A DNA stretch of 64,000 nt, from contig CAWJIM010000002.1 in assembly GCA_963842945.1 (NCBI GenBank), positions 64,001 through 128,000 on the forward strand. The letters are read 5' to 3'. The notes beneath the pieces were generated by a model. The model saw nothing but the letters and a program-made list of their open reading frames with translations. It ran no database searches and was not told the origin of the DNA. This DNA is from an uncultured Gemmatimonadales bacterium. Its GTDB lineage: Bacteria > Gemmatimonadota > Gemmatimonadetes > Gemmatimonadales > GWC2-71-9. Shown in pieces: positions 12,919-35,988 of this stretch (positions within the stretch are counted from its first letter, which is position 1; the number at the start of each line of letters is the position of its first letter). The position numbers were made by a program, and so were the translations under genes.

Positions 12919-13815
12919 CTACGGTTCCCGGGTTCGGTCAAGTTCAGACGTGGCTGCGTCTTCCGGTGGAATCTCCCATCCTTCATCGAGCGCGGCCCGG
13001 CGCGGCAGGTCGGCAGCGCGACGGCGGCGCAGCAGGATCCAGAGGACCAGCGTGAGGACCCCCCACCCTCCCCCGGCCAGGATCCAGTTGGCCAGGCTGT
13101 ACCGCTGGCGAAGGCTTCGGCGCCATTCGACATCGAATTGAGGGACGGTTAGCCCGGTCGTGCGCTGCACAGCAATCTCGAAGTCCTGGCCCGCTCTAAG
13201 GAGGTCCAGCAGTGGAGTGAGCGAACGGGTGGGATTTCGGCGCGCGAGCTCGGTGACGGCCGAGGCCGCCAGGGCGTACGCGGCATCCGCCGTTGAGGCA
13301 GAGCCTCGAAGCGCCCCATCCAGACCGGGAAGATCGGGCACCGCTCCCCGGACCACGGCCAGGTTCAACTCGAGGCTACCCAGCCGCTCCCATTCGCCCG
13401 CTGCCCAGGCCGCATACCCCTCATCAAACCAGAGCGGGACTCTGACCCGTACAGCCTCATGAAGGGCCAGATGGGCCAGCTCGTGCCGCAAGGTTCGGTA
13501 GACGTCTCCCAGATCGGCCCGAAGGAGCACGATGCGCTCCCCCGGCAACGCCACCGCTGCGCCCCAGCCCGGCGCCCGGCCGGCAGAAAGAGAGTCGAGG
13601 CGTCGTGCATCGGGTACCACAATCAGCCGAAGGGGTCCGGGACTGCGGCGCCCCAGGCCGGGCCACTCAGTTGGCTCGGCCGCCCGGCGAGCGAGATCGG
13701 TAGCCAGCCGCAACTGCTCGGGCCAGGCCACAGCAGTAACGGGTCCAACCCGGATAGCTGTCGGTGGGTTCTGCGCGGGCGTGCCCGCCAGGATACTGAG
13801 TAGGACTAGGAGAGC
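12919..13815 (-). CDS. Gluzincin (peptidase MA-like) metalloprotease with C-terminal TM; start uncertain
   Basis: LRHELAH plus PLWFDEGYA; hydrophobic signal-like stretch LLVLLSILAG in frame upstream of the called ORF start (13731). Confidence 0.75.
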   Translation of the reverse strand, partial: ALLVLLSILAGTPAQNPPTAIRVGPVTAVAWPEQLRLATDLARRAAEPTEWPGLGRRSPGPLRLIVVPDARRLDSLSAGRAPGWGAAVALPGERIVLLRADLGDVYRTLRHELAHLALHEAVRVRVPLWFDEGYAAWAAGEWERLGSLELNLAVVRGAVPDLPGLDGALRGSASTADAAYALAASAVTELARRNPTRSLTPLLDLLRAGQDFEIAVQRTTGLTVPQFDVEWRRSLRQRYSLANWILAGGGWGVLTLVLWILLRRRRAADLPRRAALDEGWEIPPEDAATSELDRTREP

Positions 13816-14672
13816 GGACTGCGCGGGACTTCACCTCCGGCCGATGCAACCTCCAACATTTCCTGACACCGCTTGGCCCAGGGATTGAACTTGTTGGCTT
13901 TGTATCCGTCGGTCCAGACTCGAACGGCGCCTTCCCGCTCTCCGCCCAGCCAGAGAGCGCGACCCAGCTCGAAATAGGCCTCGATGAGGTTGGGGCCGAG
14001 CTTCAGAGTCTTGCGGAGAAAGGTCTGGGCATCTTCGTACATCTCCCGCTCCAGGTACACCAGACCGAGATAATAGTGAGCGTACAAGGTGGCCTTGCGG
14101 TCATTGTCCAGTCGAATGGCTTTGGACAGATGCTCGATGGCCTCCCCGAAGATCCCTTTCTTGAGACAAATATATCCGACGTTGATCCGGGCGAGCGCGT
14201 TGGCCGGTTCCTTCATCAGAACTTTGGAGAAGTTTCCCAGTGCCTCATCGTAGTTCTCGTTCAGCATCTGTGCCCAGCCCAGGAGCGATGTCGCGTGGAC
14301 CGCGCCGGGCGAAAGCGCCAGGGCCTTTTCCAGAGCCTGAATGGCACCACCATAATCGCCCAATGAGATCAGGCTCCAGCCCTTCTCGATATAGGTCGAG
14401 GCCCCCAGGTGGTCGGCGTGAACTGCGGGCCGCTCGCCGGTAAACTGTGGAGCCGCCGTGGCGTCGGCTCCGTTTGCCGTTTGCTTGTAGCGCTCGACCA
14501 GCTCCCGAATGCCTTCCTTGATCTGCCCCAGGTCCGTCAGGGCGCCGTCCACCCGCTTGAACAGAGAGATGATGTCCTTCTTCAGAGTATCCCGTTCACC
14601 ACCCGGTGCGTCCAGGCGGGCGGCCATTTCCGTCAGCTCCGCCTTGAAGGCGGTGAGCCAGGCTTGGGCCAT
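13806..14672 (-). CDS. Coiled-coil + TPR protein
   Basis: N-terminal coiled coil followed by about 5 TPRs (e.g. ARINVGYICLKKGIFGEAIEHLSKAIRLD). Confidence 0.85.
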   Translation of the reverse strand: MAQAWLTAFKAELTEMAARLDAPGGERDTLKKDIISLFKRVDGALTDLGQIKEGIRELVERYKQTANGADATAAPQFTGERPAVHADHLGASTYIEKGWSLISLGDYGGAIQALEKALALSPGAVHATSLLGWAQMLNENYDEALGNFSKVLMKEPANALARINVGYICLKKGIFGEAIEHLSKAIRLDNDRKATLYAHYYLGLVYLEREMYEDAQTFLRKTLKLGPNLIEAYFELGRALWLGGEREGAVRVWTDGYKANKFNPWAKRCQEMLEVASAGGEVPRSPLS

Positions 14673-15137
14673 CTACGCCGCCCCGAGCTCGCTCAGCGCC
14701 AACCGCTCGCTGGAGGAGAGCAGCTTGCGGGCGTTGAGCAGGATGATGGTGCGCTCCGGCCGGGAGATAATTCCGGAGATGTACGCCGCTGCCAGGCCAC
14801 TCACCACCGGGCCGGGCGGCGCGATGGCAGTACTGTCCACCCGCAGCACCTCGCGCACCTCATCTACCAGCACGGCCACCCGCTGCTTCTCCAGCTCCAG
14901 CACCATGACCCGCGTTTCCTCCCGTATCGGTGCATCCAGCTCGAAGCGTTTGCGCAAGTCAATTACGGGTACGGCGGTGTCGCCGTACGGCATCACGCCT
15001 TCGAGGAACTGGGGTGCCTTGGGGAGCGGAGACGGGGGTGAGTAGCGGAGAATACGCTCCACCTGCAGGATGTCGAAGGCGAATTCCTGGCGTCCCACCC
15101 TGAAGGTTACTACCTGCACATCGTCGCCAGTGTTCAT
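14673..15137 (-). CDS. cheW: Chemotaxis coupling protein CheW
   Basis: QVVTFRVGRQEFAFDILQVERI, LPKAPQFLEGV, PVIDLRKRF, LVDEVREV. Confidence 0.93.
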   Translation of the reverse strand: MNTGDDVQVVTFRVGRQEFAFDILQVERILRYSPPSPLPKAPQFLEGVMPYGDTAVPVIDLRKRFELDAPIREETRVMVLELEKQRVAVLVDEVREVLRVDSTAIAPPGPVVSGLAAAYISGIISRPERTIILLNARKLLSSSERLALSELGAA

Positions 15138-15565
15138 GATGCAGAGGCCTCCGTCAAACGTGAGCTCAGCGCGGGCAAGTCGAGCAGCGGCACCAATGTT
15201 TCCGCATGGCGCGCCACTCCCACAGCCCAGGGCAGCGTCTCCCCAGGGGGAACCGGCAGCGCCCGCTCCCGAACCAGCACCTCTGCCTCGTCCACCTCGA
15301 GACAGACGCGGCGGCCGGCAATGTTCACCACTACCCCGACATTTCCAGAGCCGACCGGAGTCGGCCGGCCTTCCAGCAGTGACGCGAGGTGAACCAGCGG
15401 CAGCATGCGGCCATGAAGCGCGACCAGGCCGCGGACGGCGGCCTCCCTGACCGGTACAGGATGGACCTCACTCAATTGGATTACCTCCACCACCTGCTCG
15501 ACCAGGAGGCCTACGCGGCGTTGGCCGACGCGAACCAGAAGAAATCCGCTTGTACGTGCACTCAT
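15134..15565 (-). CDS. cheW: CheW-like protein
   Basis: [36 protein letters not shown]. Confidence 0.85.
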
Positions 15566-16638
15566 TGATGCTTCAACCGGTACAGCTCGGTGGCAATGCG
15601 GTCCGCCATCTGGGCCATGGGCACGACGTACTGAGCTCCTCCGGCGTGGAACGCCGCCCCCGGCATACCATAGATGGTGGCGCTCTCCCGATCCTGAGCC
15701 ATTCCAGTTCCCCCGGCGTCACGAATCTGCCTCAGGCCTTCTGCTCCATCCCGACCGATTCCGGTCAGCACCACGCCGATCGCTCGTGGTCCAAACACCC
15801 GGGCCACGCTTCCGAAGGTGGGATCGGCGGCTGGACGGACGCCCCAGACCGGTGGCTCCTGATCCAGGGCGAGACAGAGCCCGCCGGCTGCTGGACTCAC
15901 CCGCATGTGAAAACCGCCCGGCGCCACATAGGCGGTGTCGGCCAGCAGCGGCATACGGTCTTCTGCTTCGACCACCCTGCAGCGACTCTGTGCGGCCAAC
16001 CGCTCGGCCAGGCTTCTGGTGAACTTGGGCGGCATATGCTGCACGATCAGAATGGCCGCTCCCTGGCCAACCGGCAGGTGAGGCACCAGGAGAGACAAGG
16101 CGCGGGGCCCCCCGGTCGATGCCGCGATGGCCACACACAGTCTTGCCTCACCAGGGGCTTCGACCGCCTGGCCGGCAGGCCAAGTCGGCGGTGGCGCCGC
16201 TGCCTGAGTCAATCGCTTGATGTCGGCGGTCCGGGCGGCGCGCAGGACCGTGATGAGCCGGTCGGCGAAGCGGGCGTTGGCGGCCACACCGCGATCGTCC
16301 TCTTTGACCACCAGATCGATGGCACCCAACTCGAGCGCGCGGATCGCAGCCGAGGCGCCCGGCCCGACGTGAGCGCTGACCACGACGATGGGCCGCGGTG
16401 ACTCCGCCATGATGTACCCGATCGCGCCGAGCCCGTCGACTTCCGGCATTTCCAGATCCATCAGCACGAGGTCTGGAGCGTGCGCCCGAACCTTCCGTAG
16501 CGCATCCATGCCATCGCGCGCGGTGGCCACGACCCGGAACTCGCCGGACCCCTCTACCACGTCGGTGAGAAGTCGCCGGAAGAATGGACTATCGTCCACC
16601 ACGAGGACCCGGCCGGGATCAGAGGTGCCGGACGCCAT
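15562..16638 (-). CDS. cheB: Protein-glutamate methylesterase CheB (REC + CheB)
   Basis: [39 protein letters not shown]. Confidence 0.96.
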
Positions 16639-17107
16639 GCGCCACCGTGCTCACCTCGACCAGGCCATCGGCCACCCGCAGCCGCACCGTTCGGCCGAAA
16701 TCGCCTCCAACAGCTTCCCCAACCAACGGCAGGTTGTGCGACATGAGTGCCTGGCGCGTCGCGGCCAGATTGCGCTCGCCCATCTGAATGGTGCCGGGCG
16801 GAGCCAGTGCCGCGAACATGCTGGCGCCTCCGGCCAACCGGGCCGTGATGCGCCGGGGCTGAGCTCCCTTGGCCGACATCAGGTGCAGCAGCCGGGGTAC
16901 AGCTGATTGAGGGAACCGGGCCGGATTGCCGTCATCCCGGGCCAACGCCGGCGAGGGGAGAAGCACGTGCGCCAATCCGCCCACCCTGGCCTCGGCGTCG
17001 TGCAGAACGATGGCGACGCAGCTCCCCAGTCCGACCGTCAGGAGCGTGTCCTCCCCTTGCCCGACGCCCAGATCCGCTACCCGGACCACCACCTCACGGC
17101 CGCTCAC
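16619..17107 (-). CDS. cheD: Chemoreceptor glutamine deamidase CheD
   Basis: [41 protein letters not shown] start overlaps the cheR stop. Confidence 0.94.
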
Positions 17108-17925
17108 GCTGCCCGCCGGTAGATTCGCTCGCGCGCGTCCAACAGTGTCAGCAGGTCTCGGGCTCGTCCCGACAGCGATTCCACCTTGCCCAGAACCAGG
17201 AACCCTCCGGGCGCCAGCGCCTCGGCAAAGTCGAGAAAGACCCGCTCCTGCATGGCTCGGCCGAAGTAGATGACCACATTCCGGCAGAAAATCAGCTGAT
17301 AACTGCGTCGAGGAGCCGGATCGATGCAAAGATCGGAGGCCCGAACCACCACCCTGCGACGGACCCGCTCGATCACCCGGTACTCGGAACCCCGCTCTTC
17401 GAAGTACCGGCGGGCCAGCGACGCCGGCACGTCAGCGAGAGCCTCGCGGGGATATCGAGCTTCGTGCGCCCGGGCCAGACACTGGGCGTCGACGTCGGTC
17501 GCGTCCACCGTCACCCGATCGAGGTGCTCTCCTCTGCCCTGCTGATCCAGGAATTCGGCCATCAGCGTGGCGAGGGTGTACGCTTCTTCCCCGGAGGAGC
17601 ACCCTGCACTCCATGCCCGCACCGCGGACCAAGTTCCGCTGAACAGTTCGGGGAGGACTCGATTGCGCACCAGATTCCAGGTTTCGGCGTTGCGATAAAA
17701 GCTGGTGACGTTGATCGTGATCGTGGCCTTGAGCCGGGCAGCTTCCGCGGAATCCCGCTCGAGCAGCTCCTGGTATTCCCCGTAGCTCTGTACCCCGCAC
17801 GCGCGCATGCGAACCGCTATGCGCCGCCGGAGACACTTGTCCTTGTAGCCATCGAGCGAGAGCCCGGTGTGGCGGGAGATCCTGCCGATCAGGTCGAGAA
17901 ATGCTTCCTCATCCGGCGGCGTCAT
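17104..17925 (-). CDS. cheR: Chemotaxis methyltransferase CheR
   Basis: TINVTSFYRN, WSAGCSSGEEAYT, ATDVD, IFCRNVVIYF, LGKVE. Confidence 0.96.
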   Translation of the reverse strand: MTPPDEEAFLDLIGRISRHTGLSLDGYKDKCLRRRIAVRMRACGVQSYGEYQELLERDSAEAARLKATITINVTSFYRNAETWNLVRNRVLPELFSGTWSAVRAWSAGCSSGEEAYTLATLMAEFLDQQGRGEHLDRVTVDATDVDAQCLARAHEARYPREALADVPASLARRYFEERGSEYRVIERVRRRVVVRASDLCIDPAPRRSYQLIFCRNVVIYFGRAMQERVFLDFAEALAPGGFLVLGKVESLSGRARDLLTLLDARERIYRRAA

Positions 17926-19539
17926 CGGGAGAGGTCCAGCATTTCCAGGTTGGCCCGAGCCAGCTGATGCCCCGGATTGAGCGCGGTGGCCTGGGCCCAG
18001 CTTTCCCGGGCTCGCGCCAGATCGCGCCGTTTGTAGGCGATGTTCCCCAGCTTGAAATAGAGGTCGTCTCCGAGCCCGGGGTTCAGCTTGGCCGCCCGTT
18101 CGTAGGCCTCGCCCGCTTCGTCGTAGCGTCCGGTGCGGTAGAGAATGTCGCCCAGGTTCTTGGAGACCTGCGGCAGTGCGGCATCTTCCGCCAGGGCGGA
18201 GCGAAGCATCGCCTCAGCCGCCTGCGTATCACCGCTGGCCTCCAGGAGCACGGCCAGATTGTTCTGGAGAACCGGATTGTTCGGGTAGGCCTCGACCCCC
18301 TGCCGGGCGATCCGCAAAGCGTTTTCCGTATCGTCCTGTCCGACCGCCGCCAGAGGCGGCCGCCCAATACCACAGCGCCGGCACCGGCTTCCCCTGCATC
18401 AGCTCGCAGGCCTGGGCCAGGCGCGACTGGGCCACCTTGTTGTCTCCCCGCTTCAGTGCCACGATGCTCCAGCCCAGCATGATCCGGGCGTCGTCCTTGG
18501 CTCGCCCGGCGGCGTCTCCGTAGGCCGCCTCGGCCTCATCCAACCGGCCCAGCTGCTCCAGCGCAAAGCCGAGATTATGCAGAGCAGCCGGCCGGGGAAC
18601 TCCGGCTTCGGCCGCCTGACGTAGCGCCAGAGCGGCCTCGTCCCAGCACGCCTGGCGGATGGCGATCAAACCCAGGAACAACGGGGCTCGGCTGTCGGCC
18701 GGACGCAGCTCGACCACCCGCCTGAACTCCCGCAAGGCCTCCTCCAGCATGCCTGCCTTGTAGAACGCAATCCCCAGGTTCCGGTGCTCGTCGACTCGGT
18801 TATCGTTGACCTTTGGAGGCGCCGCCTTGGAGGTTCCCGTCCGATGAGCAAACCCGGCGGTGATCAGACCGAACAGCGCCTTCCCGACCTCGAATTCCAC
18901 CAGCCCGGATGCATCGATCAATTGCCGCACATCGCGGGTCCCGTCGACCAACGGGAGCAGACGCCGCTGCTCGGCGGACAGCGTGGGTCCTGACTCTGCG
19001 ATGTGGTGCTGGTCGACCGAAAAGATCAGATCGAAAGAGGGGATCTTCTTCTCGATCAGGCTCCATTCATCGACCCGACGGGCCCCTTCCAACAGCAGGG
19101 CCTCGGGACTGATTCGAACCAGAAAGTCTTCCCGCTCCGGTTTCACGCCGGCCTCGAAGTTGAAAGTCCCCGAGGTCCAGGTGAACAGGTAGTACACCGC
19201 CTCTTCGATCTGGAGGCGTATGTAGTCCTCCAGCTCGGCCCGGGTCAGCATGCCGAGCCCTACCAGTATTTCTCCCAGCTTGTGCTGCCGGTCTTCGTCC
19301 TGAGCATCGATCGCCTGCTGCAGCTGCGCGGCACTGATGCGCCCCTTGCGAAGCAGGATATCGCCCAGCCGGTCCCGCCGATTGACGATGGAGGCGTAGA
19401 CGATCTGCCCCTCGTCGAGGTAGATCGTGCCGAAATTGTGCTGATCGGCGAGGGCCAGACAGCCGGTCCGCCGGCCGAGGAAGAGCAGCTGGATGACATC
19501 CGGGAGACTGGCCTCCTTGAGGCTGCCTTTGATGGCCAT
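17922..19539 (-). CDS. DUF4388 + MshEN-like motif + TPR protein; one frameshift near 18350
   Basis: [19 protein letters not shown]...W.SGTFNF...LLLEGARRVDE (DUF4388 pattern); TPRs continue in ORF 17922..18317. Confidence 0.85.
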
Positions 19540-21536
19540 CAGCGCCACTCCTCGATGATGCGCTCACCGACATCAGGCCAGTCCCAAACTATTTTCTCCC
19601 GGCTCTTGAGTCCGCCGGCGACTGCCACCACTCCGCTTGACCGGGTGGAGGACTTCCGGGGTGGTTTGGGTTGCGCTCCCTCGAGCACTTCTCGAGCCAA
19701 AGTCACCGTTGGCGGGCCACCCTGCGCCTCAGCGGCGTTGAGGATTCGCTGAAGCAGGCCGTGCACCGCTCTGATGGACTCTACCGGACGCGAGCCGACA
19801 TAAGCCGCCAACTCGGGATCGACTGTGCCCACCTTGGCCTGCAGCGAACGCTCGACCACCTGCTGGCGAACTTCCCGTTCCGGAGGCGGCAAATCCACCA
19901 CCAGCCCGCCCTCGAGCCGGGTTCGGAGGCGGCCCTCCACGGCCTTCATTTCCGCCAGTGGCACCGCGGACGTGAAGACCATCTGCCGGCCGGATTCGAT
20001 CAGGAAGTTGAACAGGACGAACAGCTCATCCTGGGTTCGATCCTTCTCGGCGACGAGATGGACATCGTCCAACAGAAAGGCCGCGGCACCGCGGTACCGT
20101 GCCCGCCACGCCGGGACGGCGTCGCGATCGATGGCCTCGATCAGCTCTCCGGTGAGCTCATGGGCGCTGAGGCAGGCCACCGGGCCCTTTAACCGCGTTG
20201 CCAAAGCATTCCCCAGAGCGTGCAGCAGGTGCGTCTTGCCCACCCCACTCGCGCCAACAATGACAAGAGGGTTGTAACGACGGGCTGGTTCCCCGGCGAT
20301 GGCCCGAGCGGCCTGCAGCGCCATGCGATTGCCAGGGCTCTCGAAGAGGTCGTCGAGCCGCCAGATCGGAAGCGGAGCCGGCGGGGGATGCGCGCCCTCG
20401 CGGGCACGTTGGGTAACCGCCTCCGCGCCCGCGATGTCCTCCGGATCGCGAAAGGCGCTGGAGCCGGCCAGCGATGGAGCCAGCTCCGAGGCCTCGGCGT
20501 GAAGCGCCTGGAGCCGGCGCACGTCGGACTCGAACTGGCGCAGCACCTCCTCCGGATCCGTGGTCATCTCCCGCTGCAGCAACGTGTCGAGCCGCGCGGT
20601 ACTGAATCCTTCTCCTTCCCATCGGAGAATTGCCGCTGCCACCTTGGTTCGCCACGAATCCACCTGCTGGGCCACCGTGGCGGAGACCTCCGACAGAAAA
20701 TCGCTGAACTCGTCGATACCCTCCGCCTCTGCTTCCTCCTCTGGCTTCTCTGGCTTCTCTGTCTTCTCGACGTCTCCCGCCAGCTTCCCGGTCTTCCGCG
20801 GTTGCTCCTCAACCCGTTCTGCTCCCCCGGCGAGCGCCCGAGCCTGAGCCGGCTTGAGGGGAGTATCACTCACCGCCTGAAAGGCGACCAGCCGATTGAG
20901 CGCGCCGAGCAACTCACGCACGTTGTCGATCACCAGCGATCCTACCGCCTCGAGCACACCCTCACCAAACCTGGCACGCCGTTCCTCCGCTTTCCGCCGG
21001 AGAATGGCCACCCGGGTCTCATAGTCAGGAGCCGCGATATCGATCACCAGGCCGCCGGCAAAGCGGCGGATGAGCCGCTCGTCGAGCGCCTCAATCTCGG
21101 CCGGCGGACGGTCGCTAGTGAGCACGATTTGACGATTGGTGGTCTGCAAGGCGTCACTGAGCCTGAGCAGCTCAGCCTGCATCTCCCGGCGGTGGGTCAG
21201 GAACTGCACATCGTCGACCAGGAGCAGATCGACGTCACTGAACCGGCGGCGGTAGGCCTCACCCTGCCCTGCCGCCACGGCCGCATGGAAGGACTCAACG
21301 AACTCGTCCAGTGTGAGGTATTCGACCGTCAGCCTGGGGTTGATCGCGCGGGCAGCATGCCCGAGGCCCATCAAGAGATGGGTCTTGCCCAGCCCGGGAC
21401 GGGCATAAATAAAGAGCGGGTTGTACACCGTGCCCGGAGATTCCGCGACTGCCTTGGCGGCGGTGAATGCCAAGCGATTGGCCGCACCCACGACCAGCGT
21501 GTCGAAGCGGTAGAGCGGGTTGAGCGTAGCGGTCAC
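19539..21536 (-). CDS. DnaA/Hda-family protein with two tandem DnaA-type AAA+ modules and no domain I or IV
   Basis: Module 1: [59 protein letters not shown]. Module 2: [41 protein letters not shown]. Confidence 0.9.
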
Positions 21537-22135
21537 GCGACGGCGCTCCCCGCGGCCAGACGCTTCAGGACCTGTTCCGATATCCCTTTCAGAGTTTCGA
21601 ACACGCCGGTCCCATGCAAGGCGTCGGCGCTGAAGCTCTGAACCGCGCGGAAGTTCAGGGCGTCATCCATCTCCTCCTGGGTCAGTATCAGGTCGCGCGG
21701 GAGATCCTGCTTGTTGTACTGGAACACCACCGGGAGGTGCCGGATGTCCACGCCCTGCGCCAGCAGATTATCCTGCAGGTTCTGCAGACTCTCCAGATTG
21801 TCGTCGAAGCGGCGAGCCTGGCTGTCGGCTACGAACACCACTCCGTCCGCCCCCTGCAGCACCAGCTTCCGGGTTGCGTTGTAGTAGCTCTGTCCCGGCA
21901 CCGTGTAGAGCTGGAACTTCGTGGTGAAGCCGGATATCGATCCCAGCTCCAGCGGGAGAAAGTCGAAGAACAGGGTGCGGTCGGTCTGGGTAGCCAGCGA
22001 CACCATGCGGCCCCGGCGGGACTCGGGAACGCGGCCATAGACGTACTGCAGATTCGTCGTCTTGCCCGAACGGCCCGGGCCGTAGTAGACGATCTTGCAG
22101 GTGATTTCGCGGGCGGTAAAGTTGACCAGAGACAT
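21533..22135 (-). CDS. mglA: MglA-family small Ras-like GTPase
   Basis: [55 protein letters not shown]. Confidence 0.95.
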
Positions 22136-22138
22136 TCG

Positions 22139-22600
22139 CTACCGTCCAAAGAGTTCTTTGAGGCTCGTGTCCAGCTCACGCTCGAAGTTTTCCGGCAACG
22201 GCTGGTTCTCCGCCGGCTCCCGCGGGGCTGCTTGAACCAGTTCCTCTACCATCTGGTCGAAAAAGAGCTGCACCAGTCCCACCGACGTCTCCGATCCGAA
22301 CACCACCAGACCAATCCACCGTCCCCGCGGCGTGCCGAAGGCGGAGAGCATGCAGCTCTGGCGGTTTCCCCCATGCACCAAAGCAGCAAACCGGGACGCT
22401 CCCATCAATCGAGCAAGCTCTTCGGTCGAAGCCACGATGGCGGCTCCCAGCGCTGCCGCGGTCATCACCTCCACCGACCGGGAGAACCCGTGCTGGGCCA
22501 CCACCTGCCCCGAGGTGGTCATCAGCAGGATCAGCCGGGCGGAGGATTCGGTGATGAAGGTCTGCAGGGGCGCCGCCACCCAGGGCTCGAGCGCGCGCAT
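22139..22600 (-). CDS. Roadblock/LC7 protein, MglB-like
   Basis: Roadblock fold pattern ending in VVFGSETSVGLVQL and an amphipathic C-terminal helix (FERELDTSLKELFGR); immediately upstream of mglA. Confidence 0.85.
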   Translation of the reverse strand: MRALEPWVAAPLQTFITESSARLILLMTTSGQVVAQHGFSRSVEVMTAAALGAAIVASTEELARLMGASRFAALVHGGNRQSCMLSAFGTPRGRWIGLVVFGSETSVGLVQLFFDQMVEELVQAAPREPAENQPLPENFERELDTSLKELFGR

Positions 22601-22947
22601 CAGGCCAGGCGACCCACCGCATCCAGCATCTGAACCCGGGCGAGTCCCAGGTTTGCATCGGTCGCCGCAACCGCCACCAGCACCAAATCGTTCCGGCCCG
22701 GTGCCGCCAGAACCGAGCCGTTGTTGCCCCGCAAGTGCACGAAGGTCGGCGCCGGCATGCCGGCCTGCTGCGTGGCGCGATCCAGCCGCTGGACCAGACT
22801 GGCTGCCAGAGCGGCAATCGCCCGGCCGTCGATGCCGTCCATCAGCCTCTCGGCCACCACGAGCCCGTCGGTGCCCGAGATGAGCAGCGAGCCCTTTACT
22901 CCGGGCACCTGAGTGACCCGCTCCAGGGTGACTTGGGCATCACTCAT
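22600..22947 (-). CDS. Roadblock/LC7 domain protein
   Basis: VPGVKGSLLISGTDGLVV...AIAALAASL...ANLGLAR. Confidence 0.88.
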   Translation of the reverse strand: MSDAQVTLERVTQVPGVKGSLLISGTDGLVVAERLMDGIDGRAIAALAASLVQRLDRATQQAGMPAPTFVHLRGNNGSVLAAPGRNDLVLVAVAATDANLGLARVQMLDAVGRLA

Positions 22948-23792
22948 GTGTGACTCTCCAGCCAGGCTCGGGCCTCGCGGCCGGCGCGCTCAGCGATCAG
23001 CCCGAGCCGCGCCATCGGTAGAGAGGGATCTCGCACCGCGAGCAGCATCGTGTCCGGCGTGGGTGCCACCAGAAACAGGTTTCCTTCGGGCGACTCCACC
23101 GCGATGGCCTGCCATCCGCCTAGACCGAGCAAGCGGCTCGTCCGATTGGCCTCCTTGGACACTCCGGCCAGCTCAGCAGCCACTCGATCGCCTACATCTT
23201 CGTTGCTCGGACTGAACAGAGTTCCATTCAACCGCAGGCCCTTGCTATCCACCAACATGATGCCGTGATCGCCCCGCCCATTGGCTTCGCTGGTGCCATT
23301 CACGGCGTGAGACACGGGGGTGGGCGGAGCCTCGACCGAGGCGGCCTTGGGTCCGGCCGCTTTTGACGAAGCAGGCCCACTGGCCGGAGCCGCACCGGTT
23401 CCCTTGACCCGCTCAATTGCCTGACCGATAGTGACATCGTCGGGGTCGATCTCGGCGGCGCGGCGGAGATGCTCTAGAGCCGCGGGAATGTCGCCAGCGC
23501 GGAAGTACAGGAAGGCGATGCCCTTCAGGGCGCCGATTCGCATTGGGTCAAACCGCAGCGCTTCGGCCCAGGCATCGAAAGCGCCCGCAAGATCGCCCTG
23601 ATCCCCCAGAATCCTGCCGAGCAGATCGTGAGCGTCAGCCAGGGCGGGATATCGGCTGAGGCCGCCCCGCGTCACCTTGTAGGCGGCGTCGAGCTGCCCT
23701 CGGCGGCGCAGCGCTTCACCCAAATCCAGAAAAGCCAGGCTCGCCGGCTCGTCCGCCAGTCGGGCGGTCAGGGTCTTGATGTCGTCACTCAC
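22944..23792 (-). CDS. TPR + C-terminal Roadblock/LC7 fusion protein
   Basis: N-terminal TPRs, Ala/Pro linker, then IMLVDSKGL...VAAELAGVSKEA...IAVESPEGNL. Confidence 0.8.
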   Translation of the reverse strand: MSDDIKTLTARLADEPASLAFLDLGEALRRRGQLDAAYKVTRGGLSRYPALADAHDLLGRILGDQGDLAGAFDAWAEALRFDPMRIGALKGIAFLYFRAGDIPAALEHLRRAAEIDPDDVTIGQAIERVKGTGAAPASGPASSKAAGPKAASVEAPPTPVSHAVNGTSEANGRGDHGIMLVDSKGLRLNGTLFSPSNEDVGDRVAAELAGVSKEANRTSRLLGLGGWQAIAVESPEGNLFLVAPTPDTMLLAVRDPSLPMARLGLIAERAGREARAWLESHT

Positions 23793-24822
23793 GATAGCTC
23801 TCCAGCTCTTCTGCCAGGATTTCCGCTGCTTGTCTCAAGCGCTCAACCTCGGGCGCGAGCGCCTCTTCCGCAGGCGTCCGCGTGCCCAGGCGGGACCAGC
23901 TCTTCCAGGTCTCCGCTGCGCCACGAAAACGTCCGAGGGCCGCCTGACACAGACCCATCAGGCGTCGCGCCTCCGGCATCAGCGGATCCGCCCGAAGAAC
24001 CTCCTGGACCGCCTGGGCAGCCTTTTCGAATTGTCCCTTGGCCAATGCTTCACGCACGGGGAGAAGCGGCGTGTTGTGGTCCTTGCCGTTTTGCCCCGCT
24101 GATCCGGCATCCAGTACTACCACTCCTGCTTCAGCCAGGGTGTAGATGGTGCGGGCCACATCGAACTCGGACTTGCCCAAGAGGTCGGCCAGCGTTTGGA
24201 GGTCCCGCAAGCCGTCGACCGCCGCCAGCACTTCCCATTGGAACGGAAGCAGATCCAGCTTGCCCTTTGCCGCTGAATCCGGTGGTGGCAGCTTGGGCAC
24301 GACCCGCAGGTGAGGCAGCTTGTCTTCCATCCGGGACCACTCGTCCGAGCGCCGGGCGGATTCCATCAGCAGCCCTTCGGTCGGGATCCGGAGTGGGGCC
24401 TCGACCAACGCCTCCGATTCGGCCGATTCCTCGAAGCGGAAGTGTCCCTCGGTCCAGCCCAGCAGGTCGAGGATCGTTTCCTCGATCTGAGCCTTCAATT
24501 GTCGGTCGAGCTCCCGGCGGTTGATCGCGCCATTCGCCACCAGGATGTCCCCCAGACGGCGGGTATCTCCCTTCTCCTGCTGGACGAGTGCCCGATCCAG
24601 ATCCTTTGCCGAGATCTTGCCGAGGCGCACCAGCCGAGTCCCGAAGCGCTGCGGGTTCTTTCCCATGCTGGCTGCGACAACGCCGCCCCGGTCGAACGTG
24701 ACCGATGCCGCGGTCTGGCGCAGCTCGGAGGTGACGCGCAAGACCCCGTTCTTCCGGCCCAAATCGAGCAGCTGAAAGACGTCCTGGATATGGAATTCCT
24801 TCAGCGGACCTTCGAGCGCCAT
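23785..24822 (-). CDS. DUF4388 + MshEN-like motif + TPR protein
   Basis: MALEGPLKEFHIQDVFQLL, WTEGHFRF, LLMESARRSDEW; paralog of 17922..19539. Confidence 0.85.
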   Translation of the reverse strand: MALEGPLKEFHIQDVFQLLDLGRKNGVLRVTSELRQTAASVTFDRGGVVAASMGKNPQRFGTRLVRLGKISAKDLDRALVQQEKGDTRRLGDILVANGAINRRELDRQLKAQIEETILDLLGWTEGHFRFEESAESEALVEAPLRIPTEGLLMESARRSDEWSRMEDKLPHLRVVPKLPPPDSAAKGKLDLLPFQWEVLAAVDGLRDLQTLADLLGKSEFDVARTIYTLAEAGVVVLDAGSAGQNGKDHNTPLLPVREALAKGQFEKAAQAVQEVLRADPLMPEARRLMGLCQAALGRFRGAAETWKSWSRLGTRTPAEEALAPEVERLRQAAEILAEELESYRE

Positions 24823-24825
24823 GTC

Positions 24826-27594
24826 TCAGCTTGCCCCGGCAAAGATGTGCTGGAGGTCGCGGGCAGATCGGGCCCGGCTCCGGGCCTCGGTGGCGAAAGG
24901 TCCATCCGGGTCCAGCTCGATTACCCGCTCCCATACTTGAACCGCCTGGTCGAACTGACGTTGGCGGGCAAAGCCGGTACCCTGGTGGTACAGCGCTGCC
25001 GGGTGGTCAGGATCGAAACGGAGCACCCGCGCGAAGGCCTCGAGGGCCTGGACCGTTCGCCCATCCTCTAGCAAGGCGTGGCCCAGCGCCGTCAGCGCCT
25101 CCAGCTCATAAGGATCGGCTTCCAGGACCTGGACCAACACTGGAATGGCGGCCTGGGCCGATTCCGTCCGGCGAATGAGGTCGGCCAGCGGGAGTGCGGC
25201 CGGGGCGTAGGTGGGCAGCAGGTCGAGCGCCCGCTCGTAGGCGGCCCGGGCGGAGGTCCAGTTATGCTGTTCCTCCTCCAGCCCGCCCAGCTCGCACCAG
25301 ACTCGAACCAGAGAAGGATCCAGTTGAAGCGCCGATTGGAAGGCGGTGAGCGCACCGGTCCTATCACCCAGTCGGGCCGAGGCTTGGGCCTGGAGATGAA
25401 AGAGGTCGGCTTGACCGGGCGCGATCGACTGCGCCTTCCGAACTGTCTCGAGCGCACCGGCGGCATCGCCGACGGCAAGTCTCACCCGGGCCCTGGTTCC
25501 CAGAACAGCCGGATCGGCCGGGGCTCGTGACGCGAGCTCATCAGCCAGGGGAGCGGCCTCGGCGCCGCGACCCAGCGACAGTAGCGCCCTGATTTCTCCG
25601 AGCAGCGCCCCGGTGTGCGCTTTAGCAAGAATCCGCGCCTCGCGGTAGCGCTCCAGCGCCTCGCCATAAAGGCCACGGCGAGCGAAGATGTCGCCCAGAA
25701 GCACCGTGGTAGGCGCGGTAGGGGCACCCCGGGCCATGGCACGATTGAGCTCGCCCGAGGCCTGGTCGAGCAAACCCCTGGCGATGAGATCACGGGCTAC
25801 GTTCAGCGATTCTTCGGCGGGCCCGGCCCGGGGAGTTGGGGTGGTGGCCGGGGCGAGCTCCTCGAACAACCGGTCCAGCACCGGGGACTCGAAGCTGAAT
25901 TCCCCGGCCAGCTCTTCGCCACTCACATCGGCCACCAGCTCGGGTGCGATGGCTATAGTCGGATCTTCGTACTGGAGATCGATGGTCAGCGCAAACTTCT
26001 GCGGGACATAGAGCGGCTCGAGCTCGAGCGCACGCTTGGTCTCCCGCAACGCACCATCGAAGTCGCCCAGCTGACTCAGCACAAAGCTCAGGTTGTAGTG
26101 CGCTGGGGCGAAGTCGCTGTCCAGATCCACCGCCCGCCCAAAGGCGTTGCGGGCGTCCTCGAACCGTTTCATCTCCACCAGCACCAGTCCCACACCGTTC
26201 CAACCGATGGCACTGGCCGGCTGCTCCGCCAGCGCACGCTGGTACTCCTCCAGCGCGGACTTGTACTGCCGCTGCTGAAAGAGCAGCAGAGCCAGGTTGA
26301 GCCGCGCGGTGAGCAGCGGGTGGTCACCAGTGAGTGCTTTGCGGAACGCGCTGACGGCTTTGTCGTTCCCAGTCTCACTGGACCGAATGACGCCTAGATT
26401 GTTCCAGGCCAGCTGATAAGCGGCATCGATGGCGACGGCCTTTTCATAGGAGGCGATGGCCTCCTTCCGTCGGCCCGACTGGTGCAGGCAGACGCCGCGC
26501 TCGTTCCAGAGCTTGGGCGAATCGGCGTGTTCCTTCACGAGGTCGTCGTAGAGCTTCAGCGCCGCGGTGAGGTCGCGCCGCAGAATGTGAACCTCGGCCA
26601 TGGCCTGGAGGTTGAGCCGGCGGTCTTCCCCGGCGTCGAGCGCGAGCTGGTACTCTCGCAATGAATCGTCGTGGTAGCCCTGCTGTCGAAGGGCCAGACC
26701 CAGGTTGTAGTGCGCCAGGAGAGAGCCGGGAACGGAAAGCGGGCCAGCCGGGCGGCCGGGCAGCGGGGCAGATTGCGCCGGGGTCGATTGCGCAGTTTCG
26801 CCCGAACCAGGGTGTGCACGCTGGCTGCGTCTCGAGCCCGACTCTTCCTCACTGCCCCGCCGCCCCACCGCCCCGCTGCCGAGCGCCAGATTCGCCTGCG
26901 CCCGCCCGAGCATGGGGTTCAGCTCGAGAGCCCGCTTGGTTGCCGCGCGAGCGGCCTCGGGCTGACCCAGCTCGCCGTACACGAAGGCGAGCAGATAGTG
27001 CGCTTCGGCGTAGTCCGGATTGCGAGCTACCGCCTCTTTCAGTGAGACCAGCGCCAGTTCGGTCAGGCCCCGATTGTAGAGCACCTCGCCCCGATGAAAC
27101 CGGGCCACCGGATTCTCCGGCTCCTGGTCACAGGCTCGGGCCAGCCAGTCACTCGCTGCGTCGAGCCGGCCTCGCGCCTTTTCCGCCAGTCCGAGCTGGA
27201 GCATGGCGGGGACGTCGTCGGGGTGATTCGCCAGAAGTTGCTGGAACTCGATGATGGCGTCTTCATGGCGGCCCAGCATGGCATAGGCTCGGCCCAATTC
27301 CCAGCGCGATTCGCGAGCCGTGGGGGCGCGTTGGACCCGCTGTTTCAGCTCTCCGATCTTGCGATCGTAGTGCCCGCTCTCCCGATAGGCGATCTCCAGG
27401 TTGGTCTGCGCCACCTGCATTTTGGGATCGAGCTCCAGGGCGCGCGCGAACTCTGCGATCGCTTCCTCGATCAGGCCTTTCTGGTAATACAGGACACCGA
27501 GGTTGTTGTGGGCGCCGGCATCGGAGGGATCGATCCGGGAGGCGAAGGATCGAAGCACGGTGAGATCGCGCTCCGAGAGCGCGGGAGCCGGCAT
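24826..27594 (-). CDS. Large multi-TPR protein (922 aa)
   Basis: Many canonical TPRs (AHNNLGVLYYQKGLIEEAIAEFARALELDP and similar) with an acidic central spacer. Confidence 0.9.
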   Translation of the reverse strand: MPAPALSERDLTVLRSFASRIDPSDAGAHNNLGVLYYQKGLIEEAIAEFARALELDPKMQVAQTNLEIAYRESGHYDRKIGELKQRVQRAPTARESRWELGRAYAMLGRHEDAIIEFQQLLANHPDDVPAMLQLGLAEKARGRLDAASDWLARACDQEPENPVARFHRGEVLYNRGLTELALVSLKEAVARNPDYAEAHYLLAFVYGELGQPEAARAATKRALELNPMLGRAQANLALGSGAVGRRGSEEESGSRRSQRAHPGSGETAQSTPAQSAPLPGRPAGPLSVPGSLLAHYNLGLALRQQGYHDDSLREYQLALDAGEDRRLNLQAMAEVHILRRDLTAALKLYDDLVKEHADSPKLWNERGVCLHQSGRRKEAIASYEKAVAIDAAYQLAWNNLGVIRSSETGNDKAVSAFRKALTGDHPLLTARLNLALLLFQQRQYKSALEEYQRALAEQPASAIGWNGVGLVLVEMKRFEDARNAFGRAVDLDSDFAPAHYNLSFVLSQLGDFDGALRETKRALELEPLYVPQKFALTIDLQYEDPTIAIAPELVADVSGEELAGEFSFESPVLDRLFEELAPATTPTPRAGPAEESLNVARDLIARGLLDQASGELNRAMARGAPTAPTTVLLGDIFARRGLYGEALERYREARILAKAHTGALLGEIRALLSLGRGAEAAPLADELASRAPADPAVLGTRARVRLAVGDAAGALETVRKAQSIAPGQADLFHLQAQASARLGDRTGALTAFQSALQLDPSLVRVWCELGGLEEEQHNWTSARAAYERALDLLPTYAPAALPLADLIRRTESAQAAIPVLVQVLEADPYELEALTALGHALLEDGRTVQALEAFARVLRFDPDHPAALYHQGTGFARQRQFDQAVQVWERVIELDPDGPFATEARSRARSARDLQHIFAGAS

Positions 27595-27598
27595 GGCG

Positions 27599-28216
27599 CT
27601 ATGGCAGGCGAATGGCGTCGAAAATGGCCCGCAGCGACGACATATCGGGCAGCAGCAGGAAATGGCCCCCCAGCGTGTCCGCGGCTCCCTCCACTTTGAA
27701 GGTGGTCTCTACGCAAAAGGCGTAGTCCCGCTCATGCCCGAAATTGAGCTGCGCCGTGGTGAGAACCGCTCCACTTAGATCGATGACGAGGCTGGGTACT
27801 GACGGGATCAGCATCATGCCCATGAAATCGCTCAGCGCATTCAGATAGGCGCTGGCGAGGATGTTTCCCGTTTCCTTGAGTCCGGATTGCTCCATCTCGC
27901 CCAGCTCCTTGGTGGTGCCCACGGGCCGACGAAACAGGAAGTCACACACGGTGTAGGCGGACTTCTCGGGAAAGAGCACCAACGCCCGGCCGGTCAGGTC
28001 GCCCATCATATGCATGAGCACCGCGGCAACCACCGCGTCGGCCGCGCCGACCAGGTCACACGCTTCTTCCAGCGGGCGCACAAACACGCGTGGCACGGTG
28101 ATCATGATGGTGCGGTTGGTCATGCCGGAGAGCGCGGTGGCAGCGTGGCCGGCGCCGATATTGGCCACCTCGCGAATGGCGTCGAGCTGTGACTCCTTCA
28201 GGTCACGGACTTCCAT
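27599..28216 (-). CDS. cheC: CheY-P phosphatase CheC
   Basis: Two active-site motifs, DAIREVANIGAGHAATALS and SGLKETGNILASAY, plus PSVP. Confidence 0.94.
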   Translation of the reverse strand: MEVRDLKESQLDAIREVANIGAGHAATALSGMTNRTIMITVPRVFVRPLEEACDLVGAADAVVAAVLMHMMGDLTGRALVLFPEKSAYTVCDFLFRRPVGTTKELGEMEQSGLKETGNILASAYLNALSDFMGMMLIPSVPSLVIDLSGAVLTTAQLNFGHERDYAFCVETTFKVEGAADTLGGHFLLLPDMSSLRAIFDAIRLP

Positions 28217-28225
28217 GCGGGCCTC

Positions 28226-30088
28226 CTAGAGGAGCGCCGCTGCGTCGAGGATCAACGCAGGCGCCCCATCGGCGAGAATAGTCGCGCCGCCCACGAACGA
28301 CGGGAGCCCCCGGGGGGCGTCGAACGGCTCGACCACGATGTCTTGTTGCCCTACCAGAGCATCGACTACGAGCGCGGCGCGGCGCTCGCCCACTTCCAGG
28401 ATCACCGTAGGCCGGCGGTTCGACCTAGACCCCGCCCGGGCCGCGATCAGGTCACGCAAGTGAACCGTCGGTATCACCCGGTCCCGTACCACCAATGCCT
28501 CGCGATCGCGCAGCGCCGTCACCATCGCACGGTCGAAGTCCACCGTCTCGGCGACATAGGCCAGCGGCACGGCGTACCGTTCGCCACCGGCCTCGGTCAG
28601 CAATGCGCGGACAATGGCAAGGGTGAGCGGAACGCGGATCAGAAACGTGGTCCCCCGCCCCAGCTCGCTGCGCACCTCGAGGGTTCCGCCGAGCGCACGG
28701 ACCCGGCTCATCGCCACGTCCACACCCACGCCACGACCGGAAACACCACTCACCTGCTGAGCGGTGCTGAATCCCGGTCGCGCCAGCACCCGAACCAGGA
28801 GATCGTCGGGCAGCGTATCCGTCTCGGGCGCCAGCCCCTCGCGTCGAGCCTTGGCCAGGACCTTGTCCCGGTCGATGCCGCGGCCGTCATCCGTGACCCT
28901 GATCGCCACCGTGTTCCGCTCCCGTGAGGCCGAGACCAGAATGCGACCTTCGGCCAGCTTACCGGAGGCCAGCCGCTCGGCGGGAGACTCGAGCCCGTGA
29001 TCCGCCGCGTTCCGGATCAGGTGCACCAGAGGCTCACCGATCTCGTCCAGGATCGACCGGTCCAGCTCGATTTCGTCGCCTTCCGTATCGAAGCGGATCT
29101 GCTTGCCCAGATCCCGCGAAAGGTCACGCACCAGGCGAGGAAACCGCTCGAATACCTCACCTACCGGGGTCATGCGGGAGGCGAGCACCTCGCCCTGCAT
29201 ACTGGAAACGAGGCGGTTGACCCTCTCGCTCACTTCCATGAGGACGGGATCGCGGGACTCCGTGGCTAGTGCACCGAGGCGGTTCTTCGCCACGACCAGC
29301 TCGCCGACCTGCTTCATCAGCAGATCGAGCCGGCGCAGATCCACCCGAATTTGCCGGTTTGCTCCCGGCTGCGAATCCACAGTGGCCGCAACCGCCTCGA
29401 CGATCTCCATGGTCTCCACGTCGCCGACAGCACGCAGCGCGGCGATGATCTCGGGATCGGACGACCGGGTCTGCAGCCGGAAGGAGAAGCGGCCGTCGAA
29501 ATCATCCCGCTCGAATTCGACTAGTGGGGGACGGATCGTGCTCACCGCGCCCAAGGTCTCGGCCCGCCGGAGCACCAGGGCTGCTCGAGCCCCCCGCATG
29601 ACCGCACCAGGACGAATGGTCACCTGAATCGGTCGAGAGCGAGGAGCATCGGTAATGCGCCGGGCCGGAGGTGAAGTCTCCCCTGCCACTGCCGGAGGGT
29701 TGGCGGGGCGATCTGCTTCGGCTGCACGATCCAGCTCAACCAGTAGCGCCGCATCCGGGGCTTCTTCTGCCCCTGCGGCGGCGGCTTCCACGGACTTCCC
29801 CAGCGTGTCAATCGCGCGGAAGAGCAATTGGAAGACTGCCGAGCTGCCCTGCAGGCGGCCCCCCCGAAGCCCATCGAGCAGATTCTCGATCCCATGAGCC
29901 AGCTGGGCCACGGCCGAGTAGCCCATAGTCGCAGCCATGCCCTTGATCGTGTGGATCGCCCGGAAGAGCCGATCCACCGGCTCGAGTGCGGACGGCGCCT
30001 TTTCCCACTCGAGCAAAGAGCTGTTGCAGGCTTTGAGATGCTCGCGGCTTTCCGCAACAAACAGGCTGGCGTACTTGGAGAGGTCCAT
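28226..30088 (-). CDS. cheA: Chemotaxis histidine kinase CheA
   Basis: Hpt LFRAIHTIKG, IRVDLRRLD, HLIRNAADHG, DDGRG, GFST, SGRGVG, P5 domain. Confidence 0.97.
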   Translation of the reverse strand: MDLSKYASLFVAESREHLKACNSSLLEWEKAPSALEPVDRLFRAIHTIKGMAATMGYSAVAQLAHGIENLLDGLRGGRLQGSSAVFQLLFRAIDTLGKSVEAAAAGAEEAPDAALLVELDRAAEADRPANPPAVAGETSPPARRITDAPRSRPIQVTIRPGAVMRGARAALVLRRAETLGAVSTIRPPLVEFERDDFDGRFSFRLQTRSSDPEIIAALRAVGDVETMEIVEAVAATVDSQPGANRQIRVDLRRLDLLMKQVGELVVAKNRLGALATESRDPVLMEVSERVNRLVSSMQGEVLASRMTPVGEVFERFPRLVRDLSRDLGKQIRFDTEGDEIELDRSILDEIGEPLVHLIRNAADHGLESPAERLASGKLAEGRILVSASRERNTVAIRVTDDGRGIDRDKVLAKARREGLAPETDTLPDDLLVRVLARPGFSTAQQVSGVSGRGVGVDVAMSRVRALGGTLEVRSELGRGTTFLIRVPLTLAIVRALLTEAGGERYAVPLAYVAETVDFDRAMVTALRDREALVVRDRVIPTVHLRDLIAARAGSRSNRRPTVILEVGERRAALVVDALVGQQDIVVEPFDAPRGLPSFVGGATILADGAPALILDAAALL

Positions 30089-30091
30089 GGA

Positions 30092-30454
30092 TTACGCCAG
30101 GACGCGCTGTACCGCCTCGAGGACACGGGAGGGCTGGAAGGGCTTCACCACGAAATCCTTGGCACCGGCCTGGATCGCTTCGACGACGAGGGCCTGCTGC
30201 CCCATGGCGCTGCACATCAGGATCTTGGCCTCGGGGTCTGACTTGCAGATCTCCCGCACCGCCTCGATGCCGCCCATGTCGGGCATCACGATGTCCATGG
30301 TGACGAGATCGGGCTTGAGCTCGCGATACTTCGCGACCGCCTGTAACCCGGACTCGGCCTCGCCCACTACCTCGAAGCCCGCCTGGCTCAGGATGTCGCT
30401 GATCATCGTGCGCATGAAGATGGCGTCGTCGCAGACGAGCACGGTGTGGTTCAC
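30092..30454 (-). CDS. cheY: CheY response regulator (Bacillus/Thermotoga/archaeal type)
   Basis: DDAIFMR, PDLVTMDIVMP, CSAMGQQ, AKDFVVKPF. Confidence 0.95.
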   Translation of the reverse strand: MNHTVLVCDDAIFMRTMISDILSQAGFEVVGEAESGLQAVAKYRELKPDLVTMDIVMPDMGGIEAVREICKSDPEAKILMCSAMGQQALVVEAIQAGAKDFVVKPFQPSRVLEAVQRVLA

Positions 30455-32431: not shown

Positions 32432-32798
32432 CTTCCTCTTTCTCCTTGCAGGTGATGCAGAGCCGGGCATGGGGCAAGGCGTCCAGCCGCTCGAAGTTGA
32501 TCTCCTGGCCGCACTGCTGGCAGTGACCGAACTTCTCGGGAGTGCCGTACAGCCGCCGCAGCGCCTCGTTCACATGCCAGAGATACCGGCCCTCCTGTGA
32601 GGCGAAGAGGAACTGCTTCTCCCGCTCCATCGCGTCGGTTCCCTGATCCGCCATATGAAAGGAATAGGAAGAGAGATCGCCGTCGGAGGACTGCAGCGTG
32701 GCGTTGAAGGACTCGTCATAGTACCCCAGCTCCTTCATGACGCGGGCGCGCTCCTCCATGAGGCGCTTCTCGAGATGGCTCAGCTGTTTCTTATTCAT
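32415..32798 (-). CDS. dksA: TraR/DksA C4 zinc-finger protein
   Basis: HMADQGTDAMERE coiled-coil tip; CQQC...ERLDALPHARLCITC. Confidence 0.88.
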   Translation of the reverse strand: MNKKQLSHLEKRLMEERARVMKELGYYDESFNATLQSSDGDLSSYSFHMADQGTDAMEREKQFLFASQEGRYLWHVNEALRRLYGTPEKFGHCQQCGQEINFERLDALPHARLCITCKEKEEDGKRR

Positions 32799-35700: not shown

Positions 35701-35988
35701 ACCTCGATCTCGACCGGCAGCCCGTGGGTGTCCCAGCCGGCAATACGGGTGACCGACTCTCCCCGCATGGAGTGGAACCGGCAGACCAGATCCTTGATCG
35801 TCCGGGAGAACACATGATGGATGCCGGGACGGCCATTGGCGGTGGGCGGCCCCTCATAGAACACGAAGGGACTGCCGTCCCGCCGCGGCCTCCATGGTCT
35901 GCTGGAAGAGTCCCTCGGACTTCCAGAGCGCGAGTTGCCGTTGCTCCAGCTCATTGGGAGTGAGATCGGGCCAGGCAGGAAACGCCAT
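32791..35988 (-). CDS. ileS: Isoleucyl-tRNA synthetase (type 2); frameshifts near 35880, 35170 and 34555
   Basis: FYEGPPTANGRPGIHH, GWDTHGLPVE, WTTTPWTL, GSGLVHLAPAFG, DWALSRDRYWGTPLP, DQTRGWFY, KMSKS spread over 4 ORF pieces. Confidence 0.95.

Follow-up and report, generated by a model that had tools for sequence, protein, structure and literature searches.

Why would a signalling operon carry two fused copies of the ATPase core known for the control of replication? The question is raised by a 64,000-nucleotide stretch from an uncultured Gemmatimonadales bacterium (GenBank assembly GCA_963842945.1, contig CAWJIM010000002.1, positions 64,001 to 128,000; hereafter the window). Here an open reading frame (ORF) among chemosensory and mgl genes encodes two DnaA-type AAA+ modules, M1 and M2, separated by a helical middle unit and followed by a tail. 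DnaA cores of the initiator clade are known from work on replication (DnaA, Hda), and a phylum-wide family that put the core to use in an operon for polarity and chemosensing would give this motor a new task. The tandem protein is almost certainly not an initiator itself. Instead, to judge by sequence, a replication ATPase seems to have been taken over by cell-polarity or pilus signalling, to serve there as an optional switch. Specifically, we see about an even chance that the protein is an adaptor for the PATAN-TPR protein encoded immediately downstream, gated by one composite ATP site.

The tandem protein has the core of an initiator without its other domains. Its 665 amino acids (aa) are read from a GTG start, and the first DnaA core already begins at residue 5, immediately next to the mglA stop, with N-terminal domains I and II missing. 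Bac_DnaA is matched in two stretches (E 4e-90), and neither Bac_DnaA_C nor DnaA_N is among the 14 Pfam families that match at E<=0.01, as a first-pass annotation of the window had expected. The Walker A, Walker B, box VII and sensor II motifs that this annotation quoted are present in both modules. It called both modules complete, which holds for M1; M2 is partial, lacking in the window the sensor-I Asp (A524) and pocket-face residues. The acidic linker that it described between them exists, and is unconserved and predicted to be disordered. Only as the sum of two stretches does the protein pass the TIGR00362 cut-off (440.6 versus 343.9; NCBIfam), which accounts for database labels such as "chromosomal replication initiator"; annotation pipelines label it as a second dnaA. 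Against the Hda model TIGR03420 it scores below the cut-off (150.2 versus 194.8). The canonical dnaA, with domain IV and followed by dnaN, lies on a separate contig of the same genome (C19) and is the single Bac_DnaA_C match there; no third DnaA-type core and no separate Hda-like core was found in this genome beside DnaA and the tandem protein.

The fusion is real. Relatives of the tandem protein come from Gemmatimonadales and other Gemmatimonadota. We fetched 60 orthologous loci, picked for diversity and not at random: 52 hold an intact tandem ORF, six a single-module form (M1, middle unit, tail) and two a frameshift-split ORF. Because 52 of the 60 contain one intact tandem ORF, misassembly is excluded. 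An AlphaFold monomer (mean predicted local distance difference test score, pLDDT, 87; predicted template modelling score, pTM, 0.50) shows two DnaA-type folds, the helical middle unit and a pair of disordered stretches, and DnaA structures are its top Foldseek matches.

How the two modules might work together is suggested by the interface residues that each has kept. We scored 54 M1 and 53 M2 sequences at the Bacillus subtilis DnaA interface residues given in sections of PMC6669920, numbering them from an ungapped alignment and assigning them to two faces by the figure-legend order of that source together with general DnaA knowledge. Canonical DnaA proteins are conserved at the compared sites in 93–99 of 99 cases. 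M1 keeps the ATP-pocket face (F218 in 45/54, E183 in 50/54, G317 and R321 in 49/54 each, sensor I in 50/54, sensor II in 51/54) and has lost R206 (present in 6/54) and H231 (2/54); R202 is kept in 40/54. M2 keeps the finger face (R202 and R264 in 50/53 each, R206 in 37/53, H231 in 34/53, F230 in 46/53), and its pocket face is eroded (F218 and E183 in 6/53 each, G317 in 23/53, sensor I in 26/53, sensor II in 27/53). The two filament faces thus do not occur together in one module; they are split between M1 and M2.

The division also shows in f7, one of the families (numbered f1 to f12) of our genome sample. M2 of f7 has a Walker A Lys in 0/12 sequences, Walker B in 1/12 and no sensor II, and retains R260, R264, F230, H231 and L269 in 12/12; M1 of f7 has Walker A Lys, the Walker B Asp pair, sensor I and sensor II in 13/13. 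Since the pocket face is kept in M1 and the finger face in M2, and since f7 M2 lacks Walker A, the simplest reading of these sequences is that M2 donates an arginine finger to ATP bound by M1. M1 is 44% and M2 31% identical to the DnaA core of their own genome. At the positions that bind single-stranded DNA, M1 has mostly His in place of I190 and Arg or Gln in place of K222, and M2 has Ile or Val at 190 in 45/53 and Lys at 222 in 23/53. At the W267 position, Trp in 94/99 canonical DnaA proteins, Gly stands in 46/54 M1, 40/53 M2 and 30/32 archaeal cores described below.

A natural reduction series of the gene maps its working parts. It runs from the tandem form through the single-module form (6 loci) and a degenerate core plus tail (genome G204) to a mini-ORF in ten genomes that lack both ATPase modules. 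The mini-ORF, 60–73 aa long (start codons uncertain), occupies the slot of the tandem gene and consists of a helix equivalent to aa 269–301 joined to the tail, aa 645–665, of the window protein. Its coding sequence is under purifying selection: genomes G072 and G074 differ at seven sites, all seven synonymous, and differences at the three codon positions number 16/14/43 between G072 and G184 and 19/12/27 in a third pair. The mini protein had no NCBIfam match, and its Atlas matches are unnamed clusters at 0.89–0.90. The ATPase modules are dispensable; the helix and tail are not. In seven of the eight mini-form PATAN-TPR partners examined, the MshEN-like cyclic di-GMP (c-di-GMP) motif is deleted too, a pattern suggesting joint loss of the ATPases and of the input from the nucleotide messenger.

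The gene is widespread in the phylum, and its downstream neighbour is constant. A hidden Markov model (HMM) of the middle unit (aa 273–384) matched 274 of 401 sampled genomes of the phylum: 161/166 in f1, 74/93 in f2, 5/5 in f3, 5/7 in f4, 2/2 in f5, 22/70 in f7, 4/4 in f8 and 0/53 in f6 and f9–f12. These tallies include four unpublished genomes (G057, G097, G157, G182), none of which is the sole basis of any claim. The PATAN(DUF4388)-TPR gene lies directly downstream in 60/60 loci, with a 1-nucleotide (nt) or near overlap. In 64 chosen genomes this gene type occurs in 37, of which 28 have a middle-unit match and nine do not. A form of the protein, be it full, single, degenerate or mini, is present in all 37: the nine have a remnant directly before the PATAN-TPR gene (eight mini-ORFs and one degenerate core plus tail). 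Two more mini-ORFs turned up in 25 further searches. None of the 27 genomes lacking the gene type matched the middle-unit HMM, and 0/17 of those tested matched a mini-ORF HMM. The mglA linkage on which the first-pass annotation dwelt stands in part: mglA is directly upstream in 45/60 loci, and its stop is overlapped or abutted in 39 of the first 40, but the constant neighbour is the PATAN-TPR gene. In the window both junctions are as that annotation had them, a 4-nt overlap with the mglA stop (GTGA, 21533–21536) and a 1-nt overlap with the true DUF4388 ATG (TGATG, 19539).

We propose the following mechanism. The helix of aa 269–301 and the C-terminal Trp tail would form a bipartite element that probably binds the PATAN-TPR protein of the coupled gene. 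M2 would plausibly set its finger face against the ATP pocket of M1, in the way that adjacent protomers contact each other in a DnaA filament, to give a two-protomer unit with one composite ATP site that neither extends a filament nor binds an origin. More speculatively, ATP binding and hydrolysis might close and open M1:M2; because M2 sits between helix and tail, this could control their meeting, and so time or gate PATAN-TPR engagement. The literature and the genes present point to pilus polarity as the probable output, with type IV pilus motors under polar control in a Che/MglAB/c-di-GMP module. PATAN domains are reported in parts of 10.1101/2021.06.11.447907 to bind PilB1 and PilC in Synechocystis, and MglA and PATAN genes are neighbours in the modules covered by sections of PMC4316618. 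Other DnaA cores without a DNA-binding domain are fused to MshEN/PilB-N or to a FlaI-like ATPase, which we count in favour of an adaptor. The genome itself encodes at least three strong T2SSE/PilB-type ATPases and three chemoreceptors; FliG had no match in it (87% complete).

Several observations weigh against this proposal. M1 keeps its own finger Arg (R264) in 48/54 sequences and M2 outside f7 keeps the Walker A Lys in 40/41, both needless in a strictly capped single-site unit. F128 is lost from M1 and M2 alike, Val stands at the H231 position in the M2 of the window, and M2 sequences keep Ile or Val at the I190 position, which binds single-stranded DNA, in 45/53. Single-module forms without M2 exist (6/60 loci), and the AlphaFold monomer does not fix the arrangement of M1 relative to M2, since its pTM is only 0.50. 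The genomes are related, and counts are not independent events. Part of the conservation of the tail stems from an overlapping Shine-Dalgarno sequence, as its Glu-Glu codons (19548–19553) double as the GAGGAG of the next gene; the helix and a Trp-x-Pro motif are not so explained. Finally, some MglA is present in every carrier tested.

Other explanations keep the protein closer to replication or to MglA. An Hda-like or filament-capping regulator of canonical DnaA is less likely than a PATAN-TPR adaptor, and on the whole improbable. M2 would present its finger to DnaA-bound ATP, or M1 would cap the DnaA filament, while the PATAN-TPR protein localises or licenses the complex, coupling polarity or c-di-GMP to initiation. 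M2 indeed keeps equivalents of Hda F118, N122, S152 and R153, the donor face in the portion of PMC5397184 that treats it, and the Ile or Val at I190 and the lack of a separate Hda-like core in the genome fit such a role. The first-pass annotation had raised it too; what survives is the donor face. A pattern scan of 39 orthologues, with the E. coli Hda motif as reference, found no clamp-binding motif, only an internal Q-E-E-L-F-type helix and three scattered matches. The Trp relevant to regulatory inactivation of DnaA (Hda W156) is Gly in 46/54 M1 and 40/53 M2, the window contains no DnaA box, a matching pocket face is already present in cis in M1, and in ten genomes the mini form without ATPases is all that is left.

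Slightly more doubtful is an ATP-dependent head-to-tail polymer or ring, in which M1 and M2 would alternate along a filament and gather PATAN-TPR proteins at a pole. The retained M1 finger would suit it, as would M2 Walker A and B motifs kept in 40/41 sequences outside f7 and archaeal repeat-plus-core proteins that keep both faces in full. M1 has nevertheless lost R206 and H231, without which filaments do not form in B. subtilis according to sections of PMC6669920; M2 has lost F218 and E183 and, in many cases, sensor II and the lid; and f7 M2 is, by motif, unable to bind nucleotide. The least probable of the three is a direct effector or regulator of MglA. The overlapping or abutting starts speak for it, as do the presence of some MglA in all carriers tested and the mini forms that also follow mglA (G036, G047, G114, G168, G218, G228). 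The first-pass annotation had favoured this role among others, and the wider sample weakens it: mini forms occur without cluster mglA in four genomes (G052, G072, G074, G184), and full-length forms persist in 19 carriers (18 of f7 and G380) in which cluster-type mglA was not found and a second paralogue is present. In these genomes one MglA was found genome-wide (18/18 f7 carriers and G380). The eight single copies placed in a tree (six f7 carriers, G380, G072) fall, with full support, in an unlinked second-paralogue clade. In f7 the gene mostly stands directly after ileS/rluA-like genes (identified by eye); the whole che-mgl block between rluA and the gene is gone, and the PATAN-TPR gene stays. 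A separate observation is that the second MglA paralogue, at G000:C2:302643-303095 (L261, L275), has an insertion and belongs to the sole MglA clade found in f7.

By their defining features, judged from sequence, the tandem protein is a member of neither the DnaA nor the Hda family, although M2 is Hda-like in form. DnaA domain III (PF00308, TIGR00362; B. subtilis 8bv3/8btg, Thermotoga maritima 2z4r, Aquifex aeolicus 1l8q/2hcb/3r8f) shares its fold and catalytic motifs and gives its best sequence and Foldseek matches. Unlike DnaA, the protein lacks domains I, II and IV (PF08299 unmatched) and has two cores with complementary faces, and its gene is not beside dnaN and is absent or reduced in many relatives. 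With Hda (TIGR03420; E. coli Hda-beta clamp, parts of PMC5397184) it shares a DnaA-clade core without a DNA-binding domain, and M2, which keeps the box VI/VII donor face, resembles a trans-acting arginine-finger donor. It departs from Hda in its score, the missing clamp motif, the Gly at W156, the fused pocket module and the signalling-operon context. The idea of an initiator-clade ATPase repurposed away from origin binding, which the first-pass annotation put forward, is supported. The nearest published setting is that of the Group 1 MglA/MglB modules with PATAN neighbours (PMC4316618), whose supplementary table lists Gemmatimonas aurantiaca GAU_1409 as "PATAN>MglA>-PATAN>"; we infer that the dash stands for the tandem DnaA-core gene. 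A search for the word "DnaA" in the main text and in three supplementary files of that source gave 0 hits, and no ATPase component is described in them. No published description of the tandem protein was found in the literature searched, with most subscription journals outside its scope. A covalent two-protomer unit would offer a defined model of one DnaA-DnaA interface.

The middle unit points beyond the phylum. We searched its HMM against 1.84 billion representative proteins, and the top matches were long repeat proteins whose copies score about 16–43 bits each, against <=5.8 bits in controls (8 reversed, 40 shuffled). Named members come from Thermoplasmata/Thermoplasmatota, Bathyarchaeia and Thermoproteota. 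In 32 proteins, one to eight copies of the unit precede one DnaA core without a domain IV annotation. The Thermoplasmatota examples (P0137, P0125, P0309, P0340) share with the tandem protein the helical unit and the absence of domain IV and differ in having one core with both faces intact, often followed by C-terminal zinc ribbons. The unit itself had no PDB sequence match below E 0.15 and no usable Atlas match, and its best VIA-align Z score (5.6) is ordinary for helical bundles. Module phylogeny gave part of the answer that the first-pass annotation sought: M1, M2 and DnaA each form well-supported groups, and the deeper order is not settled by trees made from subsampled rows, in which Hda and L033 are long branches. 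No common origin of the tandem and archaeal cores emerges from these trees; approximately unbiased tests reject neither a grouping with archaeal and MshEN-fused cores (p 0.75) nor one with Gemmatimonadota DnaA (p 0.89).

DnaA cores also occur in other fusions. In the Thermoplasmata protein P0311 a core is fused to a FlaI/T2SSE-like ATPase. Unnamed proteins of 1870–2000 aa (P0293–P0300) carry an MshEN/PilB-N domain followed by two DnaA cores with long helical repeats of a different kind between them, apparently an independent tandem design. We tentatively suggest, below even likelihood, that the DnaA core has a widespread second career in bacteria and archaea, switching signals for pilus-type surface machines and travelling with the helical repeat unit. 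The Gemmatimonadota form would be a covalent pocket-finger pair that opens and closes the split helix-tail ligand of a c-di-GMP-sensing PATAN-TPR protein, and the mini versions would be always on. Two further candidates were set aside: a PATAN-like N-terminus in the archaeal proteins, suggested by eye and not supported by hhalign (probability 0.3, from a three-sequence profile only), and P0307, which looks like a fusion to part of DUF4388, comes from a single metagenomic record lacking the PATAN start and is not used as evidence. Two metagenome scans for archaeal repeat-plus-core loci gave, respectively, nothing and canonical dnaA (domain IV in 78/80, the repeat in 0).

Among the other matches, P0124, P0131, P0122, P0205 and P0253 consist only of repeats of the ~100-aa unit, some with DUF835 or membrane segments, and the named ones are archaeal. 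P0215, P0236, P0261 and P0270 join an N-terminal region weakly similar to the Fe-hydrogenase large subunit (E ~3e-5 in two of the four) to one middle unit, and P0236 ends in a Trp tail resembling that of the tandem protein. Contigs L096 and L098 are both 4070 bases long and agree in match coordinates and identity, yet one is assigned to a Solirubrobacterales genome and the other to a Gemmatimonadales genome; misbinning is likely. In L216:259-2223 a metagenomic dnaA frame runs into what by eye is a KsgA-like methyltransferase, replacing most of domain IV; the contig is possibly chimeric.

Table. Features of the tandem DnaA-core locus, with positions in the window and residues of the tandem protein
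Feature	Position	Strand	Remarks
Tandem DnaA-core protein, 665 aa	19539..21536	-	M1, disordered linker, helical repeat unit, M2, tail
Module M1, aa 3-226	20859..21530	-	ATP-pocket module; 44% identity to own DnaA core
M1 residues			Walker A K51, Walker B D108/D109, sensor I D142, finger R158, sensor II R207
Disordered linker, aa 239-275	20712..20822	-	pLDDT<50; variable in alignment
Amphipathic helix, conserved, aa 269-301	20634..20732	-	First half of mini-ORF element; mini-ORF HMM 20.7 bits
Middle unit, all-helical, aa 273-384	20385..20720	-	One copy of the ~100-aa repeat arrayed in tandem in archaeal proteins
Module M2, aa 386-612	19701..20381	-	Putative arginine-finger donor; R478, R482, R536, R540 kept; sensor I lost in window
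Trp tail, conserved, aa 645-665	19542..19604	-	Second half of mini-ORF element
PATAN(DUF4388) / MshEN-like c-di-GMP motif / TPR gene	17922..19539	-	Invariant downstream neighbour; +1 frameshift near 18355
mglA, cluster-type paralogue	21533..22135	-	Stop overlaps tandem ORF start
mglB-like gene and second roadblock gene	22139..22947	-	
Upstream block: TPR-roadblock, second DUF4388-TPR, large TPR, cheC, cheA, receiver-domain ORF (cheY-like by eye)	22944..30454	-	
Downstream block: cheR, cheD, cheB, two cheW, TPR, peptidase MA-like	12919..17925	-	

In the window an extra base near 18355 splits the PATAN-TPR gene into ORFs of 439 and 131 aa. The relatives have one ORF of 532–587 aa (59/60), and one near-identical contig lacks the base, which is probably an assembly error. 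Farther upstream, an isoleucyl-tRNA-synthetase-like gene (identified by eye; 32791–35954, minus strand) shows up as several ORF fragments that do not share one frame, as would fit further assembly indels.

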